Shown here: in pieces, positions 12,401 through 64,000 of the stretch | How the letters are laid out: each line of letters opens with the position of its first letter | Position numbering within the stretch: position 1 is the first letter of the stretch | Source of the DNA: Deltaproteobacteria bacterium | GTDB lineage: Bacteria; Myxococcota_A; UBA9160; UBA4427 | Assembly (NCBI GenBank): GCA_002691205.1 | Contig: NZHD01000094.1 | Coordinates: forward strand, 44 to 64,043 | Reading direction: 5' to 3' | DNA length: 64,000 nucleotides | Program-made: the position numbers and the translations under genes | The notes under the pieces: generated by a model | What the model was told of the DNA's origin: nothing | Database searches by the model: none | Seen by the model: the letters and a program-made list of their open reading frames with translations, nothing else

Positions 12401-14113
12401 ATGGCTGAATCAATACCCACGCAACCATCTGATCCTCATGCGGACGATCATCATCATGAGGAACAGAGTTTTGTAAGCAAGTACCTGCTCTCAACCGATC
12501 ACAAGGTGATTGGGATGCAGTACATGTTCACCGGGATGGCCATGGCCTTAATCGGTGGCTTCATGGCCTATGCGTTCAGGATGCAGTTGGCCTTTCCCGG
12601 GGTCGAAGTTCCTTTGTGGGGAGTCGTGACCCCGGCGAATTACACCGCCTTGGTGACTAATCACGGTGCGATCATGATCTTCTGGGTGGCTATGCCCGTA
12701 CTGATTGCCGCCTTCGGCAACTACCTGATTCCACTGATGGTGGGTTGTGACGATATGGTCTTTCCTAAGATCAATCGGCTCTCGTACCAAATCTTTCTTT
12801 TGAGTGCGATTGTTCTTATCTCCTCGTACTTCGTAGATGGAGGGGGCTTTGGCGGCGCTTGGACCACCTATCCGCCGCTCTCTGCGAAAGCCGAGTACAA
12901 CCTGACGCCCATGGGCGCTTCGATTTTCATCGGGGCTGTCGGTCTTGAATTTGTGGCGTTCCTTCTGGGTGGGATCAATTTTATCACCACCGCAATGAAT
13001 GCGCGTGCGCCTGGAATGAAACTCTATGACATCCCGATGGTGATCTGGATGATTGTGATCGCCAGTATCCTGTTCATGGTTTCTGTGGGCCCGTTGCTCG
13101 CTGGAGCGATTATGTTGCTGTTTGACCAGCAACTCGGCACAGCCTTTTACGACCCAAACCGAGGCGGCGACCCGGTCCTTTGGCAGCACCTTTTCTGGTT
13201 CTTTGGACATCCAGAGGTCTATGTTGTGCTGCTGCCAGCGATTGGGATTACCGCCGAAATTATTACGGTTTTCTCTCGAAAAAAGCTCTTCGCCTATCGA
13301 ACGGTTCTTAATACGGCAATCGGGACCGGTGTTCTGAGCTTCTGCGTGTGGGCCCACCATCAGTTCATTTCGGGCATCGATCCGAGAATGGCCCATGTCT
13401 TTACTTTGACGACTCTGCTGATCTCAATTCCGATCGCCGAAATGATGTTTGTCTATATCGCCACTCTTTATGGGGGCGCGATTCGACTGGCCACTCCCAT
13501 GCTCTGGGCACTTGCTTTCATTTTTGAGTTCCTGATTGGTGGAGTGACCGGAATTTTCTTGGGAGCGAGTGGAGCTGATATCTACCTCCACGATACCTAT
13601 TTCGTGTTGGCTCACTTCCACTACACGTTCTTCCCAATTGCCATCATTGGAACGTTTGCGGGAGTGACCTATTGGTTCCCCAAGATGTTTGGGAAGATGA
13701 TGAGTGATCGTCTGGGAAAGATTCATTTCTGGGGAACGATTATTCCTTTCAACTTCATCTTTATTCCTCTGTTTTTCCTCGGAGCCGGCGGGCAGCATCG
13801 CCGGATCTATGATTTTCAGAACTTCCCAGCTTTAGCTGGAGAAGGCATGCAGGACCTGAGAATTTTGGCCACGACTTCGCTGCTCGTGATGCTGGGATTC
13901 CAACTTGTCTTCTTCTACAACTTCATCACAAGCTTGATGAAGGGCAAAGCGGCTGGCAAGAATCCTTGGAAGGCCAATACGTTGGAGTGGACGGCCGAGT
14001 CCCCGCCACCGCATGGGAACTGGAAGGAATTGCCCACTGTTTACCGAGGGCCGTATGAATACAGCGTCCCCGGTCGTGAGAAGGATTATTGGCCCCAGGA
14101 TGAACCGAATTAA
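12401..14113 (+). CDS. coxA: Cytochrome c oxidase subunit I (haem-copper oxidase catalytic subunit)
   Basis: 570 aa. Canonical motifs WFFGHPEVY, VWAHHQF and HFHYTFF. Confidence 0.97.
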   Translation: MAESIPTQPSDPHADDHHHEEQSFVSKYLLSTDHKVIGMQYMFTGMAMALIGGFMAYAFRMQLAFPGVEVPLWGVVTPANYTALVTNHGAIMIFWVAMPVLIAAFGNYLIPLMVGCDDMVFPKINRLSYQIFLLSAIVLISSYFVDGGGFGGAWTTYPPLSAKAEYNLTPMGASIFIGAVGLEFVAFLLGGINFITTAMNARAPGMKLYDIPMVIWMIVIASILFMVSVGPLLAGAIMLLFDQQLGTAFYDPNRGGDPVLWQHLFWFFGHPEVYVVLLPAIGITAEIITVFSRKKLFAYRTVLNTAIGTGVLSFCVWAHHQFISGIDPRMAHVFTLTTLLISIPIAEMMFVYIATLYGGAIRLATPMLWALAFIFEFLIGGVTGIFLGASGADIYLHDTYFVLAHFHYTFFPIAIIGTFAGVTYWFPKMFGKMMSDRLGKIHFWGTIIPFNFIFIPLFFLGAGGQHRRIYDFQNFPALAGEGMQDLRILATTSLLVMLGFQLVFFYNFITSLMKGKAAGKNPWKANTLEWTAESPPPHGNWKELPTVYRGPYEYSVPGREKDYWPQDEPN

Positions 14114-14195
14114 AATCGGTGGACACAATGTCCGGATCAAATCGACTTTTGAAGGTGTGTAAAATGACAACAATGCACGAGGGAGCGAAGACACA

Positions 14196-14765
14196 ATGAG
14201 ACCCATCGCGACGACACGGAGTGCGGCGGGAATGCCCACTGGCCTTTTGGCCGTTTGGTGGATTGTGGCGTCCGAAATTGTGATTTTTGGCGGACTCTTA
14301 GGTGCTTACATCATGTATCGACTTTCTCATGATGCGTGGGCGGGGCATGCTGCGAACACCAACACGTTGATTGGAACTACGAATACTTTAGTTTTGTTGA
14401 CGTCGAGCCTTTTCGCCGTCCTCGCTCATCAGGCGGCTGAGAAGGGGGACGGCAAGAAGGCGGCTCGCTTCCTTATGTATACGATGGCGGGCGCCGTGGC
14501 ATTCCTTTGTATCAAAGGATACGAGTGGAATTATGAGATCAGTCACGGCATGACGATTACGACCAATACATTTTGGTCATTCTATTACACGGCGGCAGGT
14601 ATCCACGGAGCACATGTGATCGCGGGTGCGATCATCATGGGCATTGTCGCCAAGGATGCGGCCAAGGGCTTAGAATTGCAGCGAGTCGAACTGATCGGAA
14701 TCTACTGGCACTTTGTAGATATCGTTTGGATCTTTCTTTTTCCGCTCCTTTATATTGCGAAGTAG
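14196..14765 (+). CDS. coxC: Cytochrome c oxidase subunit III (short, 5-TM form)
   Basis: 189 aa polytopic protein. YWHFVDIVWIFLFPLLY is typical of subunit III. GAGGGAG SD upstream of the ATG. Confidence 0.85.
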   Translation: MRPIATTRSAAGMPTGLLAVWWIVASEIVIFGGLLGAYIMYRLSHDAWAGHAANTNTLIGTTNTLVLLTSSLFAVLAHQAAEKGDGKKAARFLMYTMAGAVAFLCIKGYEWNYEISHGMTITTNTFWSFYYTAAGIHGAHVIAGAIIMGIVAKDAAKGLELQRVELIGIYWHFVDIVWIFLFPLLYIAK

Positions 14766-14775
14766 GGACCCCATC

Positions 14776-15147
14776 ATGTCTGAAGATGAACCACACACCA
14801 ACTATGTAAAGATATGGGCCATCTTGGTGGTCTTGCTGGCCGTAAGTGTGGCGGGTCCCGAGCTTGAAATTTGGTGGCTGACTCTTGTAACCGCCTTTGG
14901 GATAGCGCTCGTTAAGGCCTACGTGGTGGCCACCAAGTTCATGCATATCGATCACGCACCTAAATTTGTCACTTACTTGATGGTGACTTGCTTAGTGTTC
15001 ATGATGCTCTTTATGGCGGGTTCGGCGTCGGACGTGTTTAAGAGCAGCGGTGACAACTGGTACAAGATTGAAAGCGATTGGCAGTACATGCCGCCTGTCG
15101 CTCAGCACGATGAAGGCGCTCACGCAGAGGAAGCAGGGAACCATTAA
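14776..15147 (+). CDS. Prokaryotic cytochrome c oxidase subunit IV family protein
   Basis: Small membrane protein directly after coxC. HTNYVKIWAILVVLLAVSV... resembles the bacterial subunit IV family. ATG at 14776 lies within track ORF 14755..15147. Confidence 0.7.
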   Translation: MSEDEPHTNYVKIWAILVVLLAVSVAGPELEIWWLTLVTAFGIALVKAYVVATKFMHIDHAPKFVTYLMVTCLVFMMLFMAGSASDVFKSSGDNWYKIESDWQYMPPVAQHDEGAHAEEAGNH

Positions 15148-15150
15148 ATA

Positions 15151-15756
15151 GTGTCAGCTGGTTTGAGTTCGGGAAGTAATGACGGTTTAGAACCCATCGA
15201 CAGGACGGCCAAAAGGCCGGTCGTCGCGAACGGGATCTTAGGGATGATGCTCTTCATCCTGACTGAGGTCATGCTCTTTGCAGGCCTCGTAAGTGCTTTC
15301 ACCATCGCAAAGTCAGCCGCTCCTGTTTGGCCTCCTCCAGGTCAACCTCGTTTGCCCATTGAAGCTACAGCTTTTAACTCAGTTGTTTTGTTCGCAAGCG
15401 CGGTGGCCCTGCTTTTTGCCCATCGCGCCTTTCACAAGGGTGACCGCGAGAGTATGCGGCGGCCCATGTGGTTGGCTCTAGGACTCGGTAGTTTTTTCGT
15501 GATCTTTCAAGGTTTTGAGTGGGTCACGTTGCTCAGTGAAGGCCTGACGATGACTTCCAGCACCTATGGTGCATTCTTCTATCTCATCGTGGGCATTCAC
15601 GCCTTGCATGCTTTCGGTGCGATTGCGCTGCTGGCACGGGCTAATCATCGCCTCCAACAGGGTTGGCTAACCCCAGGACTCTTCGGCGCAGCCGAGATGT
15701 TTTGGTTTTTTGTTGTCGGCGTCTGGCCAGTCATTTATCTCGTGGTGTACCTGTGA
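15151..15756 (+). CDS. Second haem-copper oxidase subunit III-like protein
   Basis: 201 aa, 5 TM. GFEWVTL and FFYLIVGIHALHAF are subunit-III-like. GTG start 3 nt after the previous stop. Confidence 0.7.
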   Translation: MSAGLSSGSNDGLEPIDRTAKRPVVANGILGMMLFILTEVMLFAGLVSAFTIAKSAAPVWPPPGQPRLPIEATAFNSVVLFASAVALLFAHRAFHKGDRESMRRPMWLALGLGSFFVIFQGFEWVTLLSEGLTMTSSTYGAFFYLIVGIHALHAFGAIALLARANHRLQQGWLTPGLFGAAEMFWFFVVGVWPVIYLVVYL

Positions 15757-16007
15757 GACTGAAGTCTTTGAGACTCAAAGGATTTTTGATCCTGGGTTTG
15801 GTCGGTATGGCCTTGATCTGGCCCGATTTCGCCGAGGCCTGTGCGGTGTGCGGCGCGGCTCAAGACGAAGCGACTCGGAAGGCTTTTGTCGGTACAACCG
15901 CCTTCATGACATTTTTGCCTCTTGGGATGCTGTTCTTAGTGGTGGGTTGGTATATCCGCCGAACCTTACAGCGCGAAGAAGAGGAAGAGCAACGGTCCGA
16001 GCGTTAG
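15753..16007 (+). CDS. Small exported/membrane protein with a CAVC motif at the end of the cox operon
   Basis: The GTG start overlaps the preceding TGA (GTGA). It has a signal-like N-terminus, the sequence AEACAVCGAAQDE, one TM helix and an acidic/basic tail. The start is uncertain. Confidence 0.5.
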   Translation: MRLKSLRLKGFLILGLVGMALIWPDFAEACAVCGAAQDEATRKAFVGTTAFMTFLPLGMLFLVVGWYIRRTLQREEEEEQRSER

Positions 16008-16044
16008 GCTGGTGGCGGGTTGACGGGATCTTGACCTTGACTCT

Positions 16045-16254
16045 TCAGTCAAGCATTCGTCCCATCATCACGAGGAGCCACGAGAGAAGTCCCAGCATGG
16101 CGCCTCCCACGATGCGCCTTAGGGTCGAGATTTCGGTTGGCAAGAAAGCCCACGCGAGAGCCGCCCCTGCGGTCATACACAGGGCGAGTACGAGGGTCAG
16201 AAACGGATGCTCCCTGGCAACGGCCGACCAAGTGGCGAGGGCATGAAGCCTCAC
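16045..16254 (-). CDS. Small 2-TM membrane protein (hypothetical)
   Basis: 69-aa ORF with two hydrophobic helices. GTG start. An AAGGAGG SD lies further upstream (16311-16317) in front of an in-frame ATC, so the N-terminus is uncertain. Confidence 0.4.
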   Translation of the reverse strand: MRLHALATWSAVAREHPFLTLVLALCMTAGAALAWAFLPTEISTLRRIVGGAMLGLLSWLLVMMGRMLD

Positions 16255-16364
16255 TTGACGTTCGCCCTTTGAGGGCTTTTCGACGGGTTGTTCTTCAGGT
16301 GAGATGAGAACCTCCTTTTCTTACGGAGACCGACGTCCGGCTCGCCTTTGCTTCTGCGGCCTCT

Positions 16365-16718
16365 TTAGAGGAAATGATATTTGTGCCCGTAGTAGGCCAC
16401 GATGGCACTTAGTATCCAGATAACGACCACTGTGATGCTAAGGGTGCGGAGAGCATTCAGTTCCCGCCATTCCCACCTCATAATTATGAAAGTGAGGTAG
16501 ACGAGCCCTCCGGCCGCGCCGATGGCCCCGATATTTCGATCACGCGAGGCGAGGAGCAAGATAAATCCAACAACAGCTACGATATGCGCAAGGATCACGA
16601 TGAGCACAGGCCATAAAGCGGAGTCCTCGAAATAACGCATGACGATATCTCGTGCTCTAAGTTCTTCTCTTTCAGGGGGCTCTTCGCCGGGTTGTTGGGC
16701 GCCAGGTTCTAATGTCAA
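16365..16718 (-). CDS. Hypothetical 3-TM membrane protein
   Basis: 117-aa ORF. Its TTG start overlaps the stop of the upstream DoxX-like gene. Three clear hydrophobic helices. Confidence 0.5.
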   Translation of the reverse strand: MTLEPGAQQPGEEPPEREELRARDIVMRYFEDSALWPVLIVILAHIVAVVGFILLLASRDRNIGAIGAAGGLVYLTFIIMRWEWRELNALRTLSITVVVIWILSAIVAYYGHKYHFL

Positions 16719-17113
16719 TCGAGCTGCTCCGTGATTTTATCGGGCTGTGTGTACCACCACGCCCATAGGATAAAGACGGCTTGGAAGGGCAGACGGATCC
16801 AGTTGGAAGCGCCCGCACCGCTCCCCGGACCGTCCGGCCCGACGTTGGCGGAAGCCATGTAAACGTTGGCAGGGAAGACGGCTACCAGGAGCGCAATGAT
16901 TCCCCAAGCCGCAAAGGGTCGGACTCGCGGTTCGAGGAGGAACACGCCGAGGACGATCTCTGAGAGCCCCGAGATGACATTGAGCACTTCGGGGAAGGGT
17001 AAGCTCGGAGGGATAATCCGGACATAGAAGTCTGGGTTTAAGAGGTGATCGAATCCGATATACATGTAGATCGCGGCCATGATGTAGAGCAAAATCGTTT
17101 TTGTTCTCGACAT
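16715..17113 (-). CDS. DoxX-like family membrane protein
   Basis: 132 aa, 4 TM. The pattern GFDHLLNPDFYVRIIPPSLP...FPANVYMA resembles DoxX-like/YndJ-type proteins. Confidence 0.6.
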   Translation of the reverse strand: MSRTKTILLYIMAAIYMYIGFDHLLNPDFYVRIIPPSLPFPEVLNVISGLSEIVLGVFLLEPRVRPFAAWGIIALLVAVFPANVYMASANVGPDGPGSGAGASNWIRLPFQAVFILWAWWYTQPDKITEQLD

Positions 17114-17129
17114 AGAATGGTTGATCCTT

Positions 17130-18098
17130 TCAGGACTCCGGAAGAAGTCCTATTTCAGATAGACGCTCTTTTAAGAACCCGGCTGCATCAATAGGGGGGA
17201 ATCTTGGAGTATCTCCCGCTGCGATAAACGTTTCCAGCACGCTGAGGTCGCAATCGGGTCGAGGGTGGGCAAAGAAGGGGAGGGAGTAACGGCTCGTTGC
17301 TCTTTCTTTATCTGAGGCGACCACGCGATGGGTCGTTGCAGGCAGATTATTGTTTGTCATGCGTGCCAGCATGTCCCCCACATCCACAACAATCTCGCCT
17401 TCGACGGCGTGAACGGTTCGCCATTCGTTCTCCTCTGTGAGAATTTCTAGGCCAGAATCAGTCGCGCCGCAGAGCAGTGTGATCAAGTTGATGTCCTCGT
17501 GAGGAGCGGCTCGCATGGCCCCAGATTCGATAGATTCGCTGAGAGGAGGATAGTGGGCTGCCCGCAAGATGCTATTTCCATTTAGAATCATTTCCGAGAA
17601 GGTGTGTTGAGGGAGATCGTAGGCCAGAGCAAGGCCGACAAGCAGTTGTATCGAGACCTCCTCCAGGGCCGCATAAAGAGCAAGAACATTCTCTTTCAAT
17701 TCCGGGATTTCTGTGGGCCATTGATTTTTGAGATATTGGCCTTTGAGAGCTTTTTGGGGAATCGACTCTTGTCCCACATGAAAAAATTCTTTTTGGTCCC
17801 CTATAGAATGATTTCGTGCATGCTCGAGTCCGAAGGGTGTGTATCCCCGCTGCCCGCCGAGGGCGCCTCCGCATTTTTTTTTATCCGAGGGGGGCAGCGA
17901 GAAGAAACTTTCAAATGAAGTCAGCGTATCCCGGATGAGTTCAGAGGGGACGCCATGGCCGACGACTCTTACGAAACCTGTTTCTTGCAGTCCTATGCGG
18001 AGCTCTTCGCTCCAGCGAGGAGGCTTTGAGGATGCAGGTTCTTGATTGGTGTGTAAATCGATTCTGCGGATAGGCTTCATTTTGTGTTTTTCTGCCAT
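17130..18098 (-). CDS. 2-oxoglutarate/Fe(II)-dependent oxygenase (isopenicillin N synthase-like family)
   Basis: HYPPL..., HEDINLITLL (HxD), TNNNLPATTHRVV (distal His) and RYSLPFF (RxS). 322 aa. Confidence 0.85.
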   Translation of the reverse strand: MAEKHKMKPIRRIDLHTNQEPASSKPPRWSEELRIGLQETGFVRVVGHGVPSELIRDTLTSFESFFSLPPSDKKKCGGALGGQRGYTPFGLEHARNHSIGDQKEFFHVGQESIPQKALKGQYLKNQWPTEIPELKENVLALYAALEEVSIQLLVGLALAYDLPQHTFSEMILNGNSILRAAHYPPLSESIESGAMRAAPHEDINLITLLCGATDSGLEILTEENEWRTVHAVEGEIVVDVGDMLARMTNNNLPATTHRVVASDKERATSRYSLPFFAHPRPDCDLSVLETFIAAGDTPRFPPIDAAGFLKERLSEIGLLPES

Positions 18099-18326: not shown

Positions 18327-19010
18327 CTAGTTTAGAGATTCTCTTCGGGTATCCAGCGTGCCGGTAACGCCTCCGCTCTTGAGAAGTTCTTCACGGAGGG
18401 TGTCCGCGCGGGTTCTTCGTCGCTCTCGAAGGCCATCGGTCTCACATAAACGATCCAGAACTTCTTGCCCCCAAGCGACGTGCCTTCTTTTCTTCCGGAC
18501 GATGTCTTCTAGGATCTCAATGGTGGGCGCATCGCAGATTTGATCCGTTTCGCGCATATGGAGCTCATAGATTTCAATCAAGTGAGGGATGAAAACGTCA
18601 AATAGCCCTGCGAGTTTCTCAACAGTCAGATTGGGCGTTTCCGGTCCAGCAAGAGATTGAATAAAGTCAGCGAAGGCATTGTTGGAAGGTTCACCCGAAT
18701 CGACGGCTCGTCGACCACAGCGAAGTTCCGGGAGCCTTTTCCCAAACTCATCGGCAGCCACTGCGGTTTCCCAAATCACTTTGCCGAGCCCGGTCTTGAC
18801 CGGAACCTCGGGGATGGTGGCGATCCACCCACCCATCATCATCATCATCCACTCCTCCGCGTAACGAAAGTTTCGAACTCGCTTAGCGGTTGCGACGACG
18901 TCATATCTTCCATGAAGCTCGCGAAGGTCTTCGGGGATATCGAAAGCGGAATAGGCGGCGAAGGTCGTTCTTTCGTCGGGGCCGATGCCCGGATACATGC
19001 GTTCAGTCAT
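18327..19010 (-). CDS. Ferritin-like partner protein with degenerate metal ligands (paralogue of the upstream DUF455-like gene)
   Basis: Its start overlaps the upstream stop (ATGA). By-eye alignment to 19007..19966: IWETAVAADEFGKRL against CWDEGRHVQIFEKLL, and RRHVAWGQEV against ITHVRFGSEWV. The helix-2 His and helix-4 Glu are missing. Confidence 0.55.
   Translation of the reverse strand: MTERMYPGIGPDERTTFAAYSAFDIPEDLRELHGRYDVVATAKRVRNFRYAEEWMMMMMGGWIATIPEVPVKTGLGKVIWETAVAADEFGKRLPELRCGRRAVDSGEPSNNAFADFIQSLAGPETPNLTVEKLAGLFDVFIPHLIEIYELHMRETDQICDAPTIEILEDIVRKKRRHVAWGQEVLDRLCETDGLRERRRTRADTLREELLKSGGVTGTLDTRRESLN
18834..18848 (-). repeat. (CAT)5 trinucleotide repeat encoding five consecutive Met
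   Basis: catcatcatcatcat on the plus strand equals ATG x5 in the minus-strand ORF (EEWMMMMMGGW). Confidence 0.9.
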
Positions 19011-19966
19011 TGGGTCACCTCTTTGTTCTGATTGCTTTTTCGAGCATCGTGGAGTTCTTTTAAGATCGCGGCTGCTTGACGAAGCGTTTCTTTCTTGGGG
19101 CCTGCCGAACTCAGGCTTGAAATTTCATTAATCTCGTCCATGTCGAAGCCTGCCTCGAGACGGTCCTCGATAGCGATCTGGATCGCAGAGTCTGGGCGAT
19201 CAGAGCGTGCGCCCCCAAAGTTAAATTGTTTGTCAACTTCTCTTCTGAAATTTTGAGTTCTCTCTAAATAATCGGGGTTATCTTTCGTGAATTCCTTGAC
19301 CCACTCGCTTCCGAATCGAACGTGTGTGATTTCGTCGGCCAGGACATAGTCGACGGCCTGTTCCATGACTGTGTCTCCGGTTTTCTGTGCATAGCGAATC
19401 ATGTCCCTGAAGACGTCACAGGCCAGTCCTTCAAGTCCTCGATTCACGCCCGCTACTCGCATAGCAGGATCATCGCTGCACGCGCACTCGAACAGGAAGG
19501 TGTTTTCAGGAAACATGCCAACTTCACCGCCGAGGTGGATTAGAAGCTTCTCAAAGATTTGGACATGCCTTCCCTCGTCCCAGCACTGTCGGGCCATATT
19601 CATCTTGAATTCCCAAGGCGCATCAGGAAAGTCCCAGAGTGATCGAGCGGCTCCTTCAAGGGCTTGGAGTTCGCCAACGAAGATTCCGTGCATTCTGAAA
19701 AGAAGTCGAATCCCAGCAGCCGGTGCCTCCGGATCCAGGGGCTCATTCAGGACCGTAATGATGAAGGCGGGCCCGTAGGCTTCGAAGAGTGGCTCGGCTG
19801 CAGTTCCACGAACACCTTCTTCGATCAGCTGTGCCATGGGGTCGATGGCTTTGACAACAGCGTCAACATCGTCGGGGAGAGAAGCCAAGACAGTCGCCTG
19901 GGCATTGTTGCCTCGAATAAATCGAGAGTCTCTTGCGAGCTCTTCATGTTCTATGAACCTTTTCAT
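19007..19966 (-). CDS. Ferritin-like di-iron carboxylate protein (DUF455-like)
   Basis: Complete E / ExxH / E / ExxH ligand set in order: GELQALEG, WDEGRH, RGLEGL, ADEITH. AAGGAG SD. 29 nt downstream of the TetR gene on the same strand. Confidence 0.75.
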   Translation of the reverse strand: MKRFIEHEELARDSRFIRGNNAQATVLASLPDDVDAVVKAIDPMAQLIEEGVRGTAAEPLFEAYGPAFIITVLNEPLDPEAPAAGIRLLFRMHGIFVGELQALEGAARSLWDFPDAPWEFKMNMARQCWDEGRHVQIFEKLLIHLGGEVGMFPENTFLFECACSDDPAMRVAGVNRGLEGLACDVFRDMIRYAQKTGDTVMEQAVDYVLADEITHVRFGSEWVKEFTKDNPDYLERTQNFRREVDKQFNFGGARSDRPDSAIQIAIEDRLEAGFDMDEINEISSLSSAGPKKETLRQAAAILKELHDARKSNQNKEVTQ

Positions 19967-19995
19967 GGATCGTCTCCTTTTTTAAAGATTTAGGC

Positions 19996-20649
19996 TTAAG
20001 CTTCGTGCCAGTCGAGATAGGCAAGGCATGAAGCTAGAAGTTGCTGGACCACAGTGGCGTCGCTCATGGGAACGCGTTCAATTTCACGCAGTCCCACGGT
20101 GTAGTATTCCGTGAGAAGGGCCATCGCCTGAACTAAGGCAAAAGAGACTGCGAGAGGTGGGTCAGGATGGCCGATTTCATTTCGACGTTCGAGCATAAGT
20201 TCGGCGAGGCCGTTGAGTGAGACTCGTCGGATTCGAACTGCGGCTTCCCAGAGGGTTGCGTCGGAAAGAGCTCTTTGGTGAATGGCCCGGTCGAGAGACT
20301 CCTGGTTACGAAAAATATCAACGAGAAATGGGAAACCTTCCGACAAGATCTCTTTAATGCTTGAACCCTCCCAGCGTTGGGGGTCGAGCGCCGATTGAGC
20401 GGTGGCCAGAGCTTGTTCACAGCGTCTTTCGTGGAGGGCGTGAAGCAGAGCGTTTTTATCGGCAAAACGTCTGTAGAACGCAGCGACGGATGAATCTGCT
20501 CGGCGGGCAATCTCAGCCACGTGTACATCCTCGAAGGGTTTTTCGTGCAGCAAATGTTCAGCGGCATCGAGAAACCGTTCAAGGCTCCGCAGTGTGCGGG
20601 CTTGTCGGGGGGGGCGGATCCATTCAAGGGGGCGGGGTGTTGTAGGCAT
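19996..20649 (-). CDS. TetR/AcrR family transcriptional regulator
   Basis: HTH region FEDVHVAEIARRADSSVAAFYRRFADKNALL. 217 aa. Confidence 0.9.
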   Translation of the reverse strand: MPTTPRPLEWIRPPRQARTLRSLERFLDAAEHLLHEKPFEDVHVAEIARRADSSVAAFYRRFADKNALLHALHERRCEQALATAQSALDPQRWEGSSIKEILSEGFPFLVDIFRNQESLDRAIHQRALSDATLWEAAVRIRRVSLNGLAELMLERRNEIGHPDPPLAVSFALVQAMALLTEYYTVGLREIERVPMSDATVVQQLLASCLAYLDWHEA

Positions 20650-20651
20650 AA

Positions 20652-20670
20652 ACCGGAATCAGACTCCGGT
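20652..20670. promoter_or_regulatory. Inverted repeat ACCGGA-N7-TCCGGT immediately upstream of the TetR start (candidate operator or 5'-UTR hairpin)
   Basis: 6-bp perfect arms at 20652-20657 and 20665-20670, 3 nt from the ATG of the TetR gene. Confidence 0.3.
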
Positions 20671-21114
20671 CTCATTATCGCTCATCGAACCGCGCCGTCA
20701 AGCGATGGAACACCGAGGCCGGCAGTATTCCCACGGGCTTTGGGCCATGCCGATGAGCTTCCCAGAAAGTCAACGGGAAGGCCGCTCTGCCATATGGGGC
20801 GGCGGCCGCATCGGGGCTACGGAGCCGAGGCTACACGTTTCTAAGTACAGCGTATGGGTGCCTTTTTTGGGATCCAGAGATTGCTGTTTTTCCTTTTTTT
20901 AGGGAGAGACCTGCCAAAAGAAGTGGCGGAACCGAATCTGACTGTTTTGTGTAAATGGAGGATTTCTTAATAAATACAATGTCTTACGTATTTCAATTTC
21001 AGAGTCGGATTTGGCATACTTGATGCTACTCAAGGCACTGGAAGCCCAAGATCTGCGTCTCTCTTTTGTAAGTCCGGCTAGACTCAATGAAAATCAGCGG
21101 AAGGATAGAAAACT

Positions 21115-22206
21115 ATGAGCACCTCAATGGCCTCTCTCGAGGCGCCTCTCGAATACTCGTTTGATGAACTCTTAGAGAGCGGAGAGTACGCCGAACCTCT
21201 AATGGCGGGGGATGTGCTCTGCCATGGGGGCTTTAATCAAGAGGGCGTTTATCGATCGCCGCGGATTTTAAATCGCAAGCCCGCTATTTTGGCCTGGCAA
21301 CAATCTTTGCAAGCCTCAGGTGGAGATCTGATTCAAATTTCTCCCGACTTGATCCCGCCTCAATATCCAAGTGTCGACCAGTCTGTGTTGCTGTGCCGGA
21401 ATGGTGTTCGAGAACCCGTCGTGCGGGCCCTGACCGTGATCTCAGTGGTCGAAGGTTTTGGTGCTGTGATCCGTGACGTGAAGGTGCCCGATCTCGCGAG
21501 TTGGGTGGTGGAGCCTATTCAGGGAACGGCCTTGAGTCACCTGCGAGGGGGACTCTTTGAGGCGCATGCTCGCGATGAGGCAGGGTGGGGTGAAGAAGGC
21601 GGTCACAAGCAAATGTGGGAAGCGGCGCGAGATCTGGCCTTTGAGAAGCCTGAAATTCCCCCCGACGTGTTAATGCGGATCATGGGTGGACCGGGCAAGA
21701 AACGGCGCGAGCGAAAGCGTCTCTTTCCTGAGTTGGACGAAACCCTTGAGAGCATGGTGACGACCATGTGCAATGTTCTGATTGTTGAATTGTTTGCGGA
21801 TGAAGTATTTCGATGGGGCAAGTCGGTCCTTTCAAATTCAGAGATCTCGGCCGAGCCGGAACGAGCGGCGGCTATGGTCGGTTATATCCAGAGCGATGAG
21901 AACCCGCATGTGGAATACCTTCGGACGGCCCTTTCGGAGTTGGCTTCGCGTACTCTTAAGACAGTGGATGGCAAGACTCTGGCTGGAAAAGAAGTGGTCG
22001 ATGGCATGCTCCACGCGCTGCTCGGTCAGATGATACGAACGCGTCCAGCCGATCAGAAAGAGCAAGCTCACGAGAACTTGTCTGAGTTGTTTCAAAATGC
22101 AGCCAATCCAAGCGGATTAAAGGAAGAGTTTCTTTCTCTGGAGCAGAATTGGTCTCCTCCCGAGAGGACGGGTTTTGAGCCGCAGGCCGCGGCCTGCGCT
22201 GAGTGA
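21115..22206 (+). CDS. Uncharacterised protein with a ferritin-like di-iron ligand pattern (distant DUF455-like)
   Basis: Ordered motifs VVEGFG, WGEEGGH (ExxH), IVELFADE and SDENPH (ExxH). WGEEGGHKQMWE resembles WDEGRHVQIFE of 19007..19966. GGAAGGA SD. Its stop overlaps the next gene's start. Confidence 0.5.
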   Translation: MSTSMASLEAPLEYSFDELLESGEYAEPLMAGDVLCHGGFNQEGVYRSPRILNRKPAILAWQQSLQASGGDLIQISPDLIPPQYPSVDQSVLLCRNGVREPVVRALTVISVVEGFGAVIRDVKVPDLASWVVEPIQGTALSHLRGGLFEAHARDEAGWGEEGGHKQMWEAARDLAFEKPEIPPDVLMRIMGGPGKKRRERKRLFPELDETLESMVTTMCNVLIVELFADEVFRWGKSVLSNSEISAEPERAAAMVGYIQSDENPHVEYLRTALSELASRTLKTVDGKTLAGKEVVDGMLHALLGQMIRTRPADQKEQAHENLSELFQNAANPSGLKEEFLSLEQNWSPPERTGFEPQAAACAE

Positions 22207-23468
22207 TGCATCAGAATCGACTTTGGAGAACTTGGCGTGTAGCTCGAACGGGGCTTTACGTCTGGGCTCTTTTTAAAATCCCGTCCTGGTTTAGGAAACT
22301 TTCAGGCCGACCCACCCCGGATCTAACGCCGACGCATGAGAAAGCGGCTTATGCTGTACTGGCTTGTGCCCTTGATATGCGTGGTCCGATCATTAAGGTG
22401 TGCCAAGGCATTGCGACTCGATCCGATGTGTTCCCAAAAGCGGTGGTCGAGATTTTGAAGCAATGCCATGACGCTGTTCCAGCAAAGGATTACGACGGAG
22501 TTAAGGAATTAGTGGAGCGAGAGTTGGGCAAACCTCTGGACGCGGTTTTCTCAGAGTTTGATCGACAGGCCTTAGCTTCGGCTTCTCTCGCTCAAGTTCA
22601 CCGGGCACGTCTTCACGATGGACGCGAGGTGGCCGTCAAGGTGCAGTATAAAGGGCTCGAGTCTCTCATTGAGACGGATCTCAGAAGTGTAAGAATGGCT
22701 TGCCGAGTGTATGAGTACTTTGACCCTCAGCCCATTGCTTTGCTGCCCTTGTTGACTGAGATCACAGATCATACAGCCATGGAATTAGATTTCCGTCGCG
22801 AAGCGGATAACGCGGATAGGGTCAGAGAGATTTTTTCTGACAACGAGGGCGTCGTGGTCCCAGAGATTTATCGCGAGTGGTCGACGGGAAAAGTTCTGAC
22901 AATGGAGATGGTACAAGGTATTAAAATTACGGATGCAGACGCTCTTGAGCTCGCGGGGCTCGATGCCGCCCAAGTGGTTCAGGATTTGATGCAAATTTTT
23001 GTAAAGATGATCTTCGCGGCCGGATTTTTTCAGGCAGATCCACATCCCGGGAATTTGATGGTTCGGCCTACCGGCGAAATTATCGTGATTGATTATGGCT
23101 TGGCTAAGGAATTGCCCAAAGGTTTCGGGATGGGTCTCTTTGAGTTGCTTTTTTCAATGATGACTGTGAATGAATCGGCCATGGTTCGTGCCTTTAGTGA
23201 GCTTGGCTTTCGGACCGAAGACGACGATAAAAGCGTCTTTGTTTTAATCGCTCGCCGAATGATGCGGCGAAGTGATACGGGTCGTTTTGAAGGCGAGTTT
23301 ACTGAGGAGATGACTGAAGAACTTTTTGATGCAATTCGGGAAAACCCACTTGTGGATGTGCCCACGGATTTTGTTCTCGTTGGGCGAGTTTTTTCCTTTC
23401 TGTCAGGCATCGCGCATACACTAGGACACGAGGCGAATGTTCTTGAAGCCATGGGGGCTCGAACTTAG
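22206..23468 (+). CDS. ABC1/UbiB (aarF-domain) atypical kinase family protein
   Basis: ASASLAQVHRARLHDGREVAVKVQ and ADPHPGNLMV motifs. The ATG at 22206 overlaps the upstream TGA (TGATG). An alternative GTG lies at 22203. Confidence 0.88.
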   Translation: MHQNRLWRTWRVARTGLYVWALFKIPSWFRKLSGRPTPDLTPTHEKAAYAVLACALDMRGPIIKVCQGIATRSDVFPKAVVEILKQCHDAVPAKDYDGVKELVERELGKPLDAVFSEFDRQALASASLAQVHRARLHDGREVAVKVQYKGLESLIETDLRSVRMACRVYEYFDPQPIALLPLLTEITDHTAMELDFRREADNADRVREIFSDNEGVVVPEIYREWSTGKVLTMEMVQGIKITDADALELAGLDAAQVVQDLMQIFVKMIFAAGFFQADPHPGNLMVRPTGEIIVIDYGLAKELPKGFGMGLFELLFSMMTVNESAMVRAFSELGFRTEDDDKSVFVLIARRMMRRSDTGRFEGEFTEEMTEELFDAIRENPLVDVPTDFVLVGRVFSFLSGIAHTLGHEANVLEAMGART

Positions 23469-54367: not shown

Positions 54368-55555
54368 CTAGAGAAGAATTGGGACCTTCGCATATCCCCT
54401 CACGGTGCTTGTGTGCACCATCTCGGTGTCTTCCCAGTCGACTTCCCATTCTGGGAAACGTGCAAGGGTTTCTTCTAGTGCAATCCTCCCTTCAAGTCGA
54501 GCGAGAGAAGCGCCTAGGCAGAAGTGAGTTCCGTACCCGAGAGAGACATGGCGGTCTATTCGCCGTCGGACATTGAGTCGGTCAGGATCGGAATATTCAC
54601 GTTCGTCGCGTCCAGCAGAGGCGGTGAGGAGGAGCACCTTAGATCCTTTCGGTATCCGTTGATTGTGAAGGCTTAGATCTACCTTCAACCTTCGTGCTTG
54701 AACCGGCGAGGGGGCTTCATATCGAAGGAGTTCTTCGACTGCATTGGGGATCAGGGTTGGATCTTCCACGAGAGCGGCTCGTTCTTCAGGAAAGCGTGCG
54801 AGCGCGGTGGCCGACCAACCCAAAAAACGTGCCACGGTCTCGTTGCCAGCGCCCGATAGAAGTCCGATAAACGAAAGGAGTTCTACGTCGGTCAACTTTT
54901 GACTTTTTCCGTTCTCAAGTTTTAATTCAGCTGCGATGAGAAGTGAGATCATGTCATCGGATGGAGTCTTCCTCCTTTCCTCAATATACTGACCGAAGTA
55001 TCCCCATAGCTTTTGTGAAATGTTTTCGTGCGCATCTGTATCACCGGTCTCGCCAGGGTCGCGATGGAGTAGGGCATCGGTCCATTCTCGAATGTCATCT
55101 TGGTCTTCCTCAGGTACGCCGAGGAGCGAACTGATGACCATCACGGGCAGGAGTGCACCAAATTCACCAACGTAGTCGAAACCCTTCTCGCCTATTTTAG
55201 GGTCCAGATAACGAGCGCAAATCCGGCGAATCCGCGGTTCAAGCTCATTGATTCGTCGTGGTGAAAACGCCCGACTCACAAGTTTTCGTAGCTGAGTGTG
55301 CTCAGGCGCATCCTTCCAGATCATCATAGGTGAGGTGTTGGGTTCATCCTGCATGAGCTCGAGGACCGATCCGTAGGCTGAACTAAACCGATTCGCATCA
55401 AGGGACGCCTGTAAAACATCTTCGAATCGTGAGATCGCCCAGAAGTCATATTTCTTGTTGTAGTAGACGGGCGCCTCATCTCGCATGCGTTTCCAGACGG
55501 GGTGAGGGTTCGCGTCAATCTCGTAATCGTAGGGATCGTAATAGATCGAGCTCAT
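54368..55555 (-). CDS. Cytochrome P450
   Basis: Haem-binding FGYGTHFCLGASLARLE, ExxR (EELLRYEAP) and the AGNETV I-helix. The ATG at 55555 gives an N-terminus MSSIYYDPYDYE parallel to the paralogue at 62917. Confidence 0.92.
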   Translation of the reverse strand: MSSIYYDPYDYEIDANPHPVWKRMRDEAPVYYNKKYDFWAISRFEDVLQASLDANRFSSAYGSVLELMQDEPNTSPMMIWKDAPEHTQLRKLVSRAFSPRRINELEPRIRRICARYLDPKIGEKGFDYVGEFGALLPVMVISSLLGVPEEDQDDIREWTDALLHRDPGETGDTDAHENISQKLWGYFGQYIEERRKTPSDDMISLLIAAELKLENGKSQKLTDVELLSFIGLLSGAGNETVARFLGWSATALARFPEERAALVEDPTLIPNAVEELLRYEAPSPVQARRLKVDLSLHNQRIPKGSKVLLLTASAGRDEREYSDPDRLNVRRRIDRHVSLGYGTHFCLGASLARLEGRIALEETLARFPEWEVDWEDTEMVHTSTVRGYAKVPILL

Positions 55556-55681
55556 ATTTCGCGGCCTTCGGATTGGGGTCGAGTTCATTCAAGGCACCCA
55601 CGTGGTCACGACAGAATAGCGCTGGGTTGGCTAGACTGCTGGGATACCGTGAATGGAATAACATCCACAAGGAGCAATCAC

Positions 55682-62874: not shown

Positions 62875-62900
62875 ATTTGCATTGCAAGCGCTATGCAAAT
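62875..62900. promoter_or_regulatory. Inverted repeat ATTTGCAT-N10-ATGCAAAT in the TetR-operon/P450 divergent region (candidate TetR operator)
   Basis: Perfect 8-bp arms at 62875-62882 and 62893-62900. It lies between the dehydrogenase-TetR operon start (62828) and the P450 start (62917). Confidence 0.45.
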
Positions 62901-62916
62901 GGCATAGCGTAAGGAC

Positions 62917-64000
62917 TTGCAGAGTCCGAACTACGACCCTTACGCCTATGAAATTCATGAGGACCCCTATCCGGTCTATCGCGACTTGAGGGAGGCGGGG
63001 CCGGTTTATCGGAATGCCGATTTGGACTTTTGGGCTCTTACTCGGCATCAAGATGTTTTAGCCGCTTTCAAGAATTGGAATTTATATTCGAACAGAGAGG
63101 GCGTTTCAATTGATCCGTCATCGCGAACTTCGGCGGCAGAAGTGGGAATGTCTTTCCTCGCAATGGATCCGCCGCGGCATTCTCGTGTTCGGCGTCTGGT
63201 CTCTCGAGAGTTCACCCCACGCCGGGTAGCGGCTTTGGAAGACCGGATCAGGACGCTGACAAAATCCTATCTTGATCCTCTTGTCAGTTCGGGCGGGTTT
63301 GATGTAATCGCAGACTTTGCCGGACTACTTCCGATGGCTGTCATAAGTGAATTATTGGGTGTTCCCGAAGCAGATCGAGCGGTTCTCCGAACTTGGGCGG
63401 ACCTCCTCGTGCATCGAGAGGAAGGGGTTCGGGATGTACCGAGTGAAGGCAAGCAGGCCTTTGTCAATATTCGGTCTTATTTCACAGATCTCGTCGCCGA
63501 TCTACGCGCACATCCGAACGAAGGTCTTCTTAGTGCATTGCTTGAGATGGAGAGAGACGGCAATGGCCTAGAAGAGGGAGAACTGCTTTCAGTGTGTAAT
63601 CTCATGATTACGGCGGGCAATGAGACGACAACTAAGCTGTTAGCCAATGCACTCTACTGGCTATCTGAAAATCCATCTCAGAGAGAGGTTGTACACAATG
63701 ACTCGTCTCAAATAGAGGCGTGGATCGAAGAGACGCTTCGGTATGACAACTCTACCCAAATGTTGGCTCGATTAATGACGGAAGAAACTCGTATACATGA
63801 CCATGTGATTCCGGCAGGAGGTTTAGTTTTACTCTTAGTGGGTTCGGCTAATCGTGATGAGGCTGTTTTCCCTAATGCGGATCAATATCAGATTAGTCGC
63901 GATACCTCTCAGATGCTTTCGTTCGGAAAGGGGATGCATTTCTGCCTGGGTGCTTCACTTGCCCGGCTTGAAGCGAGGGTGGCTTTTGAGGAATGGTGGA
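62917..64000 (+). CDS. Cytochrome P450 (3'-partial, runs off the window). Not in the ORF track.
   Basis: The frame is open from the TAG at 62905 to nt 64000. The TTG at 62917 is the only start codon (AAGGA upstream). Translation QSPNYDPYAYEIHEDPYPVYRDL..., AGNETT, ETLRY, FGKGMHFCLGASLARLE. It is a paralogue of 54368..55555. Confidence 0.9.
   Translation, partial: MQSPNYDPYAYEIHEDPYPVYRDLREAGPVYRNADLDFWALTRHQDVLAAFKNWNLYSNREGVSIDPSSRTSAAEVGMSFLAMDPPRHSRVRRLVSREFTPRRVAALEDRIRTLTKSYLDPLVSSGGFDVIADFAGLLPMAVISELLGVPEADRAVLRTWADLLVHREEGVRDVPSEGKQAFVNIRSYFTDLVADLRAHPNEGLLSALLEMERDGNGLEEGELLSVCNLMITAGNETTTKLLANALYWLSENPSQREVVHNDSSQIEAWIEETLRYDNSTQMLARLMTEETRIHDHVIPAGGLVLLLVGSANRDEAVFPNADQYQISRDTSQMLSFGKGMHFCLGASLARLEARVAFEEWW

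Follow-up and report, generated by a model that had tools for sequence, protein, structure and literature searches.

A DUF455 protein with a ligand-degenerate partner and a separately conserved ABC1-kinase gene pair lie side by side in a Myxococcota locus

Introduction

In the multicomponent monooxygenases (TmoA/TmoE) and in PaaA/PaaC, a subunit with a full di-iron site is joined by a second subunit of homologous fold that is free of ligands. Here, we describe a locus for which we propose a similar division of labor, carried on a window of 64,000 nucleotides from a Deltaproteobacteria bacterium of the phylum Myxococcota (contig NZHD01000094.1, positions 44 to 64,043; "the window" denotes this whole stretch). 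Its putative catalytic protein belongs to DUF455, a widespread ferritin-like family of bacteria, plants and fungi for which we found no assigned function; literature searches for DUF455, COG2833 and PF04305 returned no functional characterization. Across a divergent spacer lies a second pair of genes, encoding a 363-aa protein without annotation and an atypical kinase of the ABC1/UbiB family.

Both pairs resemble described systems only in part. Single-gene DUF455 proteins from Proteobacteria, Firmicutes and eukaryotes belong to the same Pfam family and carry the same E/ExxH/E/ExxH residues as the protein studied here, whereas the present clade has terminal extensions and an obligate, coupled, degenerate partner. 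Compared with the subunits of bacterial multicomponent monooxygenases, both proteins of this pair are much smaller, and the catalytic one belongs to DUF455. Neither matches the Pfam families Phenol_Hydrox or PaaA_PaaC at E values up to 1, which sets them apart from the multicomponent monooxygenases and PaaABCDE, and their loci contain no linked reductase, ferredoxin, effector or gamma-subunit genes. The second pair recalls UbiB/COQ8 and Coq7, where an ABC1-family kinase is likewise genetically tied to a putative carboxylate/His metalloprotein; what proteins of the ABC1/UbiB family do biochemically is still under debate. Finally, the DUF455 genes are preceded by a TetR-family regulator. As in autoregulated TetR operons, the regulator comes first and a 19-bp inverted repeat is flanked by the -10 element and the start codon, but this regulator is restricted to a marine subclade of the loci that carry the pair.

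Results

Two separately conserved modules

Five open reading frames (ORFs) make up the locus, all of them found where an original prediction, made from the letters of the window, had placed them. We refer to the minus-strand group (20701..18327), comprising the TetR regulator, the DUF455 protein and its 227-aa partner, as module A and to the plus-strand group (21115..23468), comprising the 363-aa protein and the ABC1 kinase, as module B. Their features are as follows:

20674..20701, minus strand: promoter-like site TTGACG-16-GATAAT, for the TetR-DUF455-partner operon
20652..20670, no strand assigned: 19-bp palindromic operator ACCGGAATCAGACTCCGGT, upstream of the TetR start
19996..20649, minus strand: first gene of module A, for a 217-aa regulator of the TetR family (Pfam TetR_N)
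19007..19966, minus strand: DUF455 ferritin-like protein, 319 aa, putative catalytic di-iron subunit (Pfam PF04305)
18327..19010, minus strand: 227-aa ligand-degenerate partner, putative non-catalytic subunit, directly after the DUF455 gene
21115..22206, plus strand: first gene of module B, for a 363-aa protein from a family without annotation
22203..23468, plus strand: second gene of module B, for an atypical kinase of the ABC1/UbiB family with 421 aa, or 420 aa if translation begins at the ATG at 22206 (PF03109)

The spacings and junctions reported earlier were also exact. The DUF455 and partner genes share an ATGA stop/start overlap at 19007-19010, the TetR gene ends 29 nt before the DUF455 gene, the divergent spacer between the TetR and 363-aa starts measures 465 nt, and the 363-aa gene meets the kinase gene in a TGATG junction at 22204-22208. 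An alternative GTG start at 22203 would give the kinase gene a GTGA overlap with the 363-aa stop. The public annotation begins the 363-aa protein at 21127, for a length of 359 aa.

We surveyed gene neighborhoods from both sides of the spacer. One set consisted of the 80 best species-level Myxococcota genome loci of the 363-aa gene, relatives of which occur in at least 517 species genomes; the other consisted of 80 metagenome loci centered on the 227-aa partner. Since antisense shadow ORFs contaminate GC-rich loci, neighbors were clustered after a conservation-weighted choice of ORFs. The TetR-DUF455-partner genes lie near the 363-aa gene in only 3/80 genome loci, all three from close relatives, and neither the 363-aa gene nor an ABC1 gene occurs within 7 kb of the partner in any of the 80 metagenome loci. 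In the related loci L003 and L004, an amidohydrolase gene separates the two modules. Gene clustering across both sets, together with Pfam-annotated contigs, revealed no third conserved neighbor for either pair.

Because the two halves are linked so rarely while each pair is conserved alone, the modules are independent of each other. Their juxtaposition is local synteny in close relatives and not the signature of one hydroxylase system. On balance, we favor the reading that the region consists of two unrelated two-gene modules, adjacent only in a marine Myxococcota lineage, and hold it with fair though far from complete confidence.

A conserved operator at the module A promoter

The regulator is a clear member of its family (Pfam TetR_N, 47.9 bits against a cutoff of 24, E 1.1e-12). 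In about 19 of the 80 metagenome loci, as well as in L003, L006, L009, L012 and L174, its gene precedes the DUF455 gene and is read in the same direction; these loci belong to the marine subclade mentioned above. By comparing the upstream regions of TetR loci, we found a palindrome with the consensus ACCGGAATCnGATTCCGGT, of which the window holds the copy ACCGGAATCAGACTCCGGT. All 22 loci whose upstream sequence is long enough carry a version of it ahead of the TetR gene, amid flanks that have diverged. In the window, 2 nt separate its end from the TetR start codon, and the -10-like GATAAT lies just upstream of it. When up to three mismatches are allowed, it is the single site in the 64-kb window, where 0 are expected, and in 1.58 Mb of fetched DNA every such site but one precedes a TetR gene. 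The exception, with two mismatches (L026 11740-11758), lies in a 363-aa/kinase locus without the DUF455 pair.

The promoter-like site agrees with the consensus at 10 of 12 positions, and the region contains no more sites of this quality than chance would give; we infer a promoter at 20674..20701 from its position beside the operator. Because the conserved operator sits only at the TetR promoter, its position predicts that the regulator most likely controls its own TetR-DUF455-partner operon. The operator is about 445 nt from the 363-aa start and has no second copy near the divergent genes; neither observation points to regulation of the 363-aa and kinase genes by TetR. Within the otherwise GC-rich 465-nt spacer, an AT-rich stretch at 20940-21010 contains no copy of the operator and may include the promoter of the 363-aa gene. 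A search of Rfam gave no match anywhere in the 64-kb window, the spacer and its AT-rich stretch included.

These data bear directly on the original prediction, which had joined all three proteins, the regulator and the kinase in one module. In that explanation, the five genes form a single TetR-controlled divergon that encodes a di-iron hydroxylase system of three ferritin-like proteins, with a UbiB-type kinase assisting, for a Coq7-like step in quinone or isoprenoid-lipid synthesis. The five genes do adjoin in the window and in its nearest relatives (L006, L009, L012 and L003), and the 363-aa protein contains an ExxH helix of the kind common to ferritin-like proteins. However, the linkage is lost outside the closest clade, an extra gene stands between the halves even in L003, and the single operator belongs to the TetR promoter. 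Conservation of the neighborhood across genomes had been proposed as a check of this idea, and we found the co-localization confined to the closest relatives. The survey has already largely refuted the single divergon, and the quinone evidence given below leaves it, in our judgment, very improbable.

A DUF455 protein paired with a ligand-degenerate partner

The protein encoded by 19007..19966 matches Pfam DUF455 with 89.7 bits against a gathering cutoff of 34.3 (E 2.8e-25). The match spans residues 92-279 only, and N- and C-terminal extensions make up the rest of the 319-aa protein. Its DUF455-like character and its complete E/ExxH/E/ExxH set, both proposed earlier, are confirmed by this score and by an alignment of 42 homologues (71-83% identity), in which E99, E104, E131xxH134, E179 and E212xxH215 are invariant. 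Weak sequence matches to the ribonucleotide reductase (RNR) beta subunit, R2lox and aldehyde-deformylating oxygenase (ADO), all on the ExxH helix, point to a putative ferritin-like di-metal fold. A further match to DUF455, from Crov588, was rejected as an artefact of FNIP repeats that resemble "LTHxxFG".

The DUF455 gene lies directly upstream of the partner gene in about 72 of the 74 testable metagenome loci (those with room for it), and in 68/72 loci the two genes share a 4-nt stop/start overlap. The only clear exceptions are two soil loci (L158 1354-2606 and L162 4123-5381), where a partner homologue follows an unrelated 185-aa ORF. The classical DUF455 genes of Ralstonia and Geobacillus stand alone, without a partner; the pairing is therefore a lineage-specific elaboration.

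The partner itself belongs to a family of 1,057 related clusters, which have neither names nor Pfam domains. It scores 15.3 bits against Pfam DUF455, below the cutoff of 34.3. Among 46 homologues, sub-threshold matches to DUF455 appear in 24 (best E 0.0037) and sub-threshold matches to the Pfam family Ferritin in 11. A hidden Markov model (HMM) of the DUF455 clade aligns colinearly with it over ~120 residues, pairing DUF455 residues 122-241 with partner residues 74-204. This profile alignment reproduces the one drawn by eye in the original prediction, albeit at a weak score, since the best partner sequence reaches 6.6 bits compared to 4.8 for the best shuffled control. The reverse profile on the DUF455/partner comparison gave a mean of 4.8 bits, versus -0.5 for reversed and -1.5 for shuffled sequences. 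Margins of a few bits over controls lend weak support to kinship between the partner and DUF455 and do not prove it.

The alignment indicates how far the partner's putative metal site has decayed. Both losses read from the sequence earlier, those of the helix-2 His (H134, now A85) and the helix-4 Glu (E212, now K174), are present, but the degeneration goes further: E131 is replaced by T82 and E179 by I141, so that four of the five alignable ligands are gone and only H215 is kept, as H177. A second hallmark of the family is the C-terminal motif SGGVTGxL, invariant in all 46 aligned homologues (residues 205-227, window 18327-18395) within a region that is otherwise variable and modeled with a low predicted local distance difference test (pLDDT) score. 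This tail could dock into the DUF455 subunit.

We compared the AlphaFold2 (AF2) model of the partner with known structures using Foldseek. Its top matches are TenA, the beta chain of toluene-4-monooxygenase hydroxylase (T4moH), ADO, CADD, R2lox and PaaA. On the T4moH beta chain, which is non-catalytic, the model superimposes with a query-normalized TM-score (TMq) of 0.66-0.67. The idea of a catalytic DUF455 protein with a ligand-degenerate, non-catalytic relative is supported by this superposition together with the near-constant adjacency and gene overlap. The catalytic/degenerate pair is real, conserved and new for the DUF455 family.

Several observations nevertheless weigh against reading the two proteins as subunits of one oxygenase. 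Profile-profile comparison of the partner with the DUF455 family by hhalign is not significant. The same comparison among all three families (DUF455, partner and 363-aa), which the original prediction had proposed, also gave nothing significant and aligned the ExxH helix only; its input consisted of close-homologue profiles of low diversity, with an effective sequence number (Neff) of about 1.5. The partner model is of moderate confidence (pLDDT 67.7), and although Foldseek assigns its matches a probability of 1.0 and TMq values of 0.53-0.67, their E values are 0.02-0.3. Heme-oxygenase-like folds (TenA and CADD) are interleaved with the ferritin-like ones and score equally well. No linked reductase, ferredoxin or effector gene is conserved in the 80 metagenome loci or the Pfam-annotated contigs.

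Could the 227-aa protein be unrelated to DUF455 and no subunit at all, but merely the product of the next gene, such as a substrate-binding or carrier protein in which the SGGVTGxL tail is the functional element? The marginal similarity to DUF455, the invariance of the tail and the two soil loci would all fit such a role. Yet the ~120-residue alignment is colinear and agrees with an independent one made by eye, and about half of the homologues (24/46) retain weak DUF455 matches. Added to the ferritin- and heme-oxygenase-like fold matches and the near-universal 4-nt coupling, this makes an unrelated partner unlikely.

The neighbors of module A are variable and often encode oxygenases or catabolic enzymes, among them cytochrome P450s, Rieske oxygenases, 2-oxoglutarate (2OG) oxygenases and amidohydrolases; major facilitator superfamily (MFS) transporters occur as well. 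None recurs widely: each candidate (amidohydrolases, P450, Rieske oxygenase, DUF2889, VTT and MFS) is found in at most 6 of the 80 loci. These surroundings help to weigh another possibility, namely that the pair handles iron or counters oxidative stress in the manner of ferritin, rubrerythrin or Dps. Ferritin-like di-iron sites do also serve as ferroxidase centers, and the weak Ferritin matches of 11/46 partner homologues are in line with such a function. But TetR regulators typically answer small organic ligands and not iron, the neighboring genes often belong to oxygenases and catabolic enzymes, and in its weak similarities the DUF455 protein comes closest to RNR beta, R2lox and ADO, not to ferritins. 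We consider an iron-handling role distinctly unlikely.

In the window, a 2OG-Fe(II) oxygenase gene (DIOX_N and 2OG-FeII_Oxy domains; 17130-18098, minus strand) follows the partner gene on the same strand after 228 nt. Because two further genes intervene in L003 and the gene is absent in L006, it is probably outside the operon. An aa3-type cytochrome c oxidase cluster follows at 12401-17113, with COX1, COX3, COX4 and a second COX3-like gene; after it, on the opposite strand, come genes for two small membrane proteins, one of them MauE/DoxX-like. Synteny between the block 12401-17113 and the DUF455 pair extends to L003, L004 and L174. Far from the locus, the window contains two cytochrome P450 genes (54518-55561, minus strand, and 62890-63945, plus strand), whose products are 33-37% identical to a P450 of L005. 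In L005, the P450 gene divergently adjoins the DUF455 pair.

A His/Glu/Asp-rich protein paired with an ABC1-family kinase

In 78 of the 80 Myxococcota genome loci, the ABC1 kinase gene comes directly after the 363-aa gene. The kinase gene is displaced by about 5.8 kb in one of the two exceptions and absent within 6 kb in the other. The genes overlap by 4 nt at 36 of 65 evaluable junctions, and the gap falls between -10 and +30 nt at 55 of the 65. The 363-aa protein and the kinase are a second, separate pair that is as well conserved as the first.

As an ABC1-family protein, the kinase is well defined. It contains a PF03109 ABC1 domain (248 bits), and its alignment to 7cy2 covers VAVK, ELD, DxHPGN and D(F/Y)G, so the catalytic motifs are kept. 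Among solved structures, it is closest to the mycobacterial ABC1 proteins 7cy2 (E 4e-31) and 5yjz (3e-29), similar in length at about 440 aa, and then to COQ8A/B. The earlier assignment to the ABC1/UbiB kinases holds to this extent, but the protein falls below the cutoffs for UbiB equivalogs (266.8 against 487.55 for TIGR01982 and 198.1 against 667 for PRK04750) and, at 421 aa compared to the 529 positions of the PRK04750 model, is without the longer C-terminal region of UbiB. It also scores far below the cutoff of the NCBIfam model MABP-1 ("macrolide-binding ATPase MABP-1"), with 118 bits against 800. For the mycobacterial ABC1 proteins, we know of no comparable conserved upstream partner gene.

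The UbiB family has K-x-G-Q as its signature motif, which is present in 7cy2. In our kinase, residues 63-69 read IIKVCQG (window 22389-22400), so that K-x-C-Q replaces it. Cys occupies this position in 79 of the 80 kinases partnered with a 363-aa protein and may be a subfamily signature or a redox-sensitive residue.

The 363-aa family comprises at least 2,897 clusters at 90% identity (653 at 50%), all named hypothetical and none with a Pfam domain; Pfam and NCBIfam gave no match for the 363-aa protein itself. We examined its conservation in a divergent alignment (28-49% identity). G38, Y46, P49, R50, W61, P85, H142, D154, H164, W168, R172, H265 and E275 are invariant, and H37, E113, H151, E155, E225, D261 and E262 are at least 90% conserved. 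The original prediction had seen in this protein the same ordered ligand pattern as in DUF455. Three of its four motifs stand (E113, E225 and E262xxH265), while the fourth does not, since the Glu of "EEGGH", E161, is variable, as is E149.

The AF2 model (pLDDT 83, predicted TM-score 0.83) has an N-terminal beta-hairpin bearing a CHGGF motif, then several short helices and three long C-terminal helices, the helical domain being rich in His and carboxylates. PDB searches with single proteins and with profiles gave no informative match; the family profile picked out bacterioferritin (E 0.017), a designed di-iron protein and RNR R2, on the ExxH helix only. A Ferritin_2 match appears in 1 of 35 family members (E 0.0013), and the Foldseek top list, although non-significant, consists mostly of di-metal bundles: AetD, NrdF, R2lox, PolF, CADD, Bfr, Dps and MiaE. 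These similarities make a ferritin-like ancestry plausible, and the protein is probably a metalloprotein that is only distantly ferritin-like. Weak matches to the Pfam family MCR_gamma in 8 of 50 homologues were set aside as spurious, as they vanish in the divergent set.

Other features count against a di-iron enzyme. The second helix has no canonical ExxH, since E149 and E161 vary; the residues conserved in its place are H142, H151, D154, E155 and H164. Short helices make up the first half of the helical domain. Structure prediction followed by Foldseek, another check proposed with the original prediction, had yielded ferritin- and heme-oxygenase-like bundles for the partner, whereas against the PDB the 363-aa model has no significant match (best E 0.8, TM-scores 0.26-0.40). 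An hhalign comparison of the 363-aa family with DUF455 gave a probability below 2%. In addition, distant homologues occur without a kinase: beside an AAA ATPase and FtsX permeases, beside DsbA, between DUF1385 and prfA-prmC, or as tandem paralogues. Because these lack an ABC1 neighbor, the partnership with the kinase is clade-specific and could be regulatory rather than catalytic.

The 363-aa protein might accordingly be a regulator, scaffold or substrate of the ABC1 kinase, its conserved His, Glu and Asp residues serving in folding, ligand sensing or an interface. The lack of a significant match to an enzyme family or fold and the missing helix-B ExxH favor such a role, and the tight coupling to the kinase gene fits it equally well. 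On the other hand, the conservation of five His and seven carboxylates extends down to 28% identity and to homologues without a kinase neighbor, which argues for an intrinsic, probably metal-dependent, activity. The only similarities that can be detected are also to di-iron helices. A non-enzymatic role seems to us a possibility to be taken seriously, though well short of the likeliest.

Two loci illustrate the range of distant contexts. L176 7001-8083 encodes a homologue that falls in the same 90% cluster as P0375 and is 39% identical to the 363-aa protein of the window. Its gene is part of a housekeeping cluster on a 1.9-Mb contig, in the order rho, rpmE, DUF1385, the homologue, prfA (RF-1) and prmC, with no kinase, unlike the Myxococcota context. 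In L177 (869-2982), 15 nt lie between the tandem genes for two divergent homologues, P0364 and P0368, and an enoyl-CoA hydratase gene comes next. Both homologues retain the conserved His and Glu residues, and the tandem suggests that members of the 363-aa family may also form hetero-oligomers.

A role in ubiquinone synthesis is unlikely

A quinone hydroxylase of the Coq7 type, as first proposed for this locus, finds no footing in these data. Scans of the three proteins and 131 family members gave no match to COQ7 (PF03232) even at E values up to 10. A 2026 survey places the ubiquinone pathway in Pseudomonadota and one class of Desulfobacterota only, with the former Deltaproteobacteria treated as menaquinone producers, and thus reports no such pathway for Myxococcota (PMC13386864). 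UbiB-family proteins are indeed genetically tied to quinone biosynthesis (PMC5714133), and this tie speaks for the single divergon. Compared with UbiB and Coq7, however, our kinase carries K-x-C-Q in place of K-x-G-Q, the 363-aa protein is not a COQ7, and the host phylum is not reported to produce ubiquinone (PMC13386864). Because there is no COQ7 match, the kinase is not a UbiB equivalog and the phylum is not reported to make ubiquinone, a role in ubiquinone hydroxylation is unlikely. A role with another hydrophobic or prenylated molecule is possible, by analogy with the ABC1 family in general.

Discussion

The adjacency of five genes in one genome suggested a single system, and comparative data split it into two. 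We propose that module A is a self-repressed operon, in which TetR would bind the 19-bp palindrome overlapping its own promoter and be released by a small, probably hydrophobic, ligand. Translational coupling would supply the DUF455 protein and its partner in fixed proportion, probably as the subunits of a heteromeric di-iron enzyme, an oxidase or oxygenase. Activation of O2 would fall to the DUF455 subunit alone; the partner would be structural or bind the substrate, as in the alpha/beta pairs of monooxygenases or in PaaA/PaaC.

Module B, in turn, appears to be a translationally coupled pair of a His/Glu/Asp-rich helical protein and a soluble-type ABC1/UbiB-family ATPase or kinase with K-x-C-Q. 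Beyond their genetic link, the two proteins most likely act jointly on a hydrophobic, prenyl-lipid-like molecule other than ubiquinone.

A more ambitious reading takes the 363-aa protein as the founder of an undescribed metalloprotein family, one without a Pfam model or solved relative. In its Myxococcota branch, it would be the obligate, translationally coupled partner of a distinct K-x-C-Q-type ABC1/UbiB ATPase, and the two genes would make up a minimal system in which the ATPase delivers a prenyl-lipid of the membrane, or another hydrophobic molecule, to a dedicated oxidase. Separately, the pair in module A would be the first heteromeric form of DUF455. Taken as a whole, this reading is speculative, and we think it doubtful that all of its parts will hold.

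Each module nonetheless offers a way into a poorly understood family. For DUF455, an obligate degenerate partner and a dedicated TetR with a defined operator provide an experimental route to the substrate, through the compound that releases the repressor; if our proposal for module A is right, the ligand of this regulator could reveal the substrate of the DUF455 family. For the ABC1/UbiB family, function could be approached through a partner gene that precedes the kinase in 78 of 80 genomes of a phylum with no reported ubiquinone pathway, which makes the pair a concrete lead. Should the proposal for module B hold, the 363-aa/kinase pair would be a tractable bacterial handle on the role of the UbiB family outside ubiquinone synthesis.

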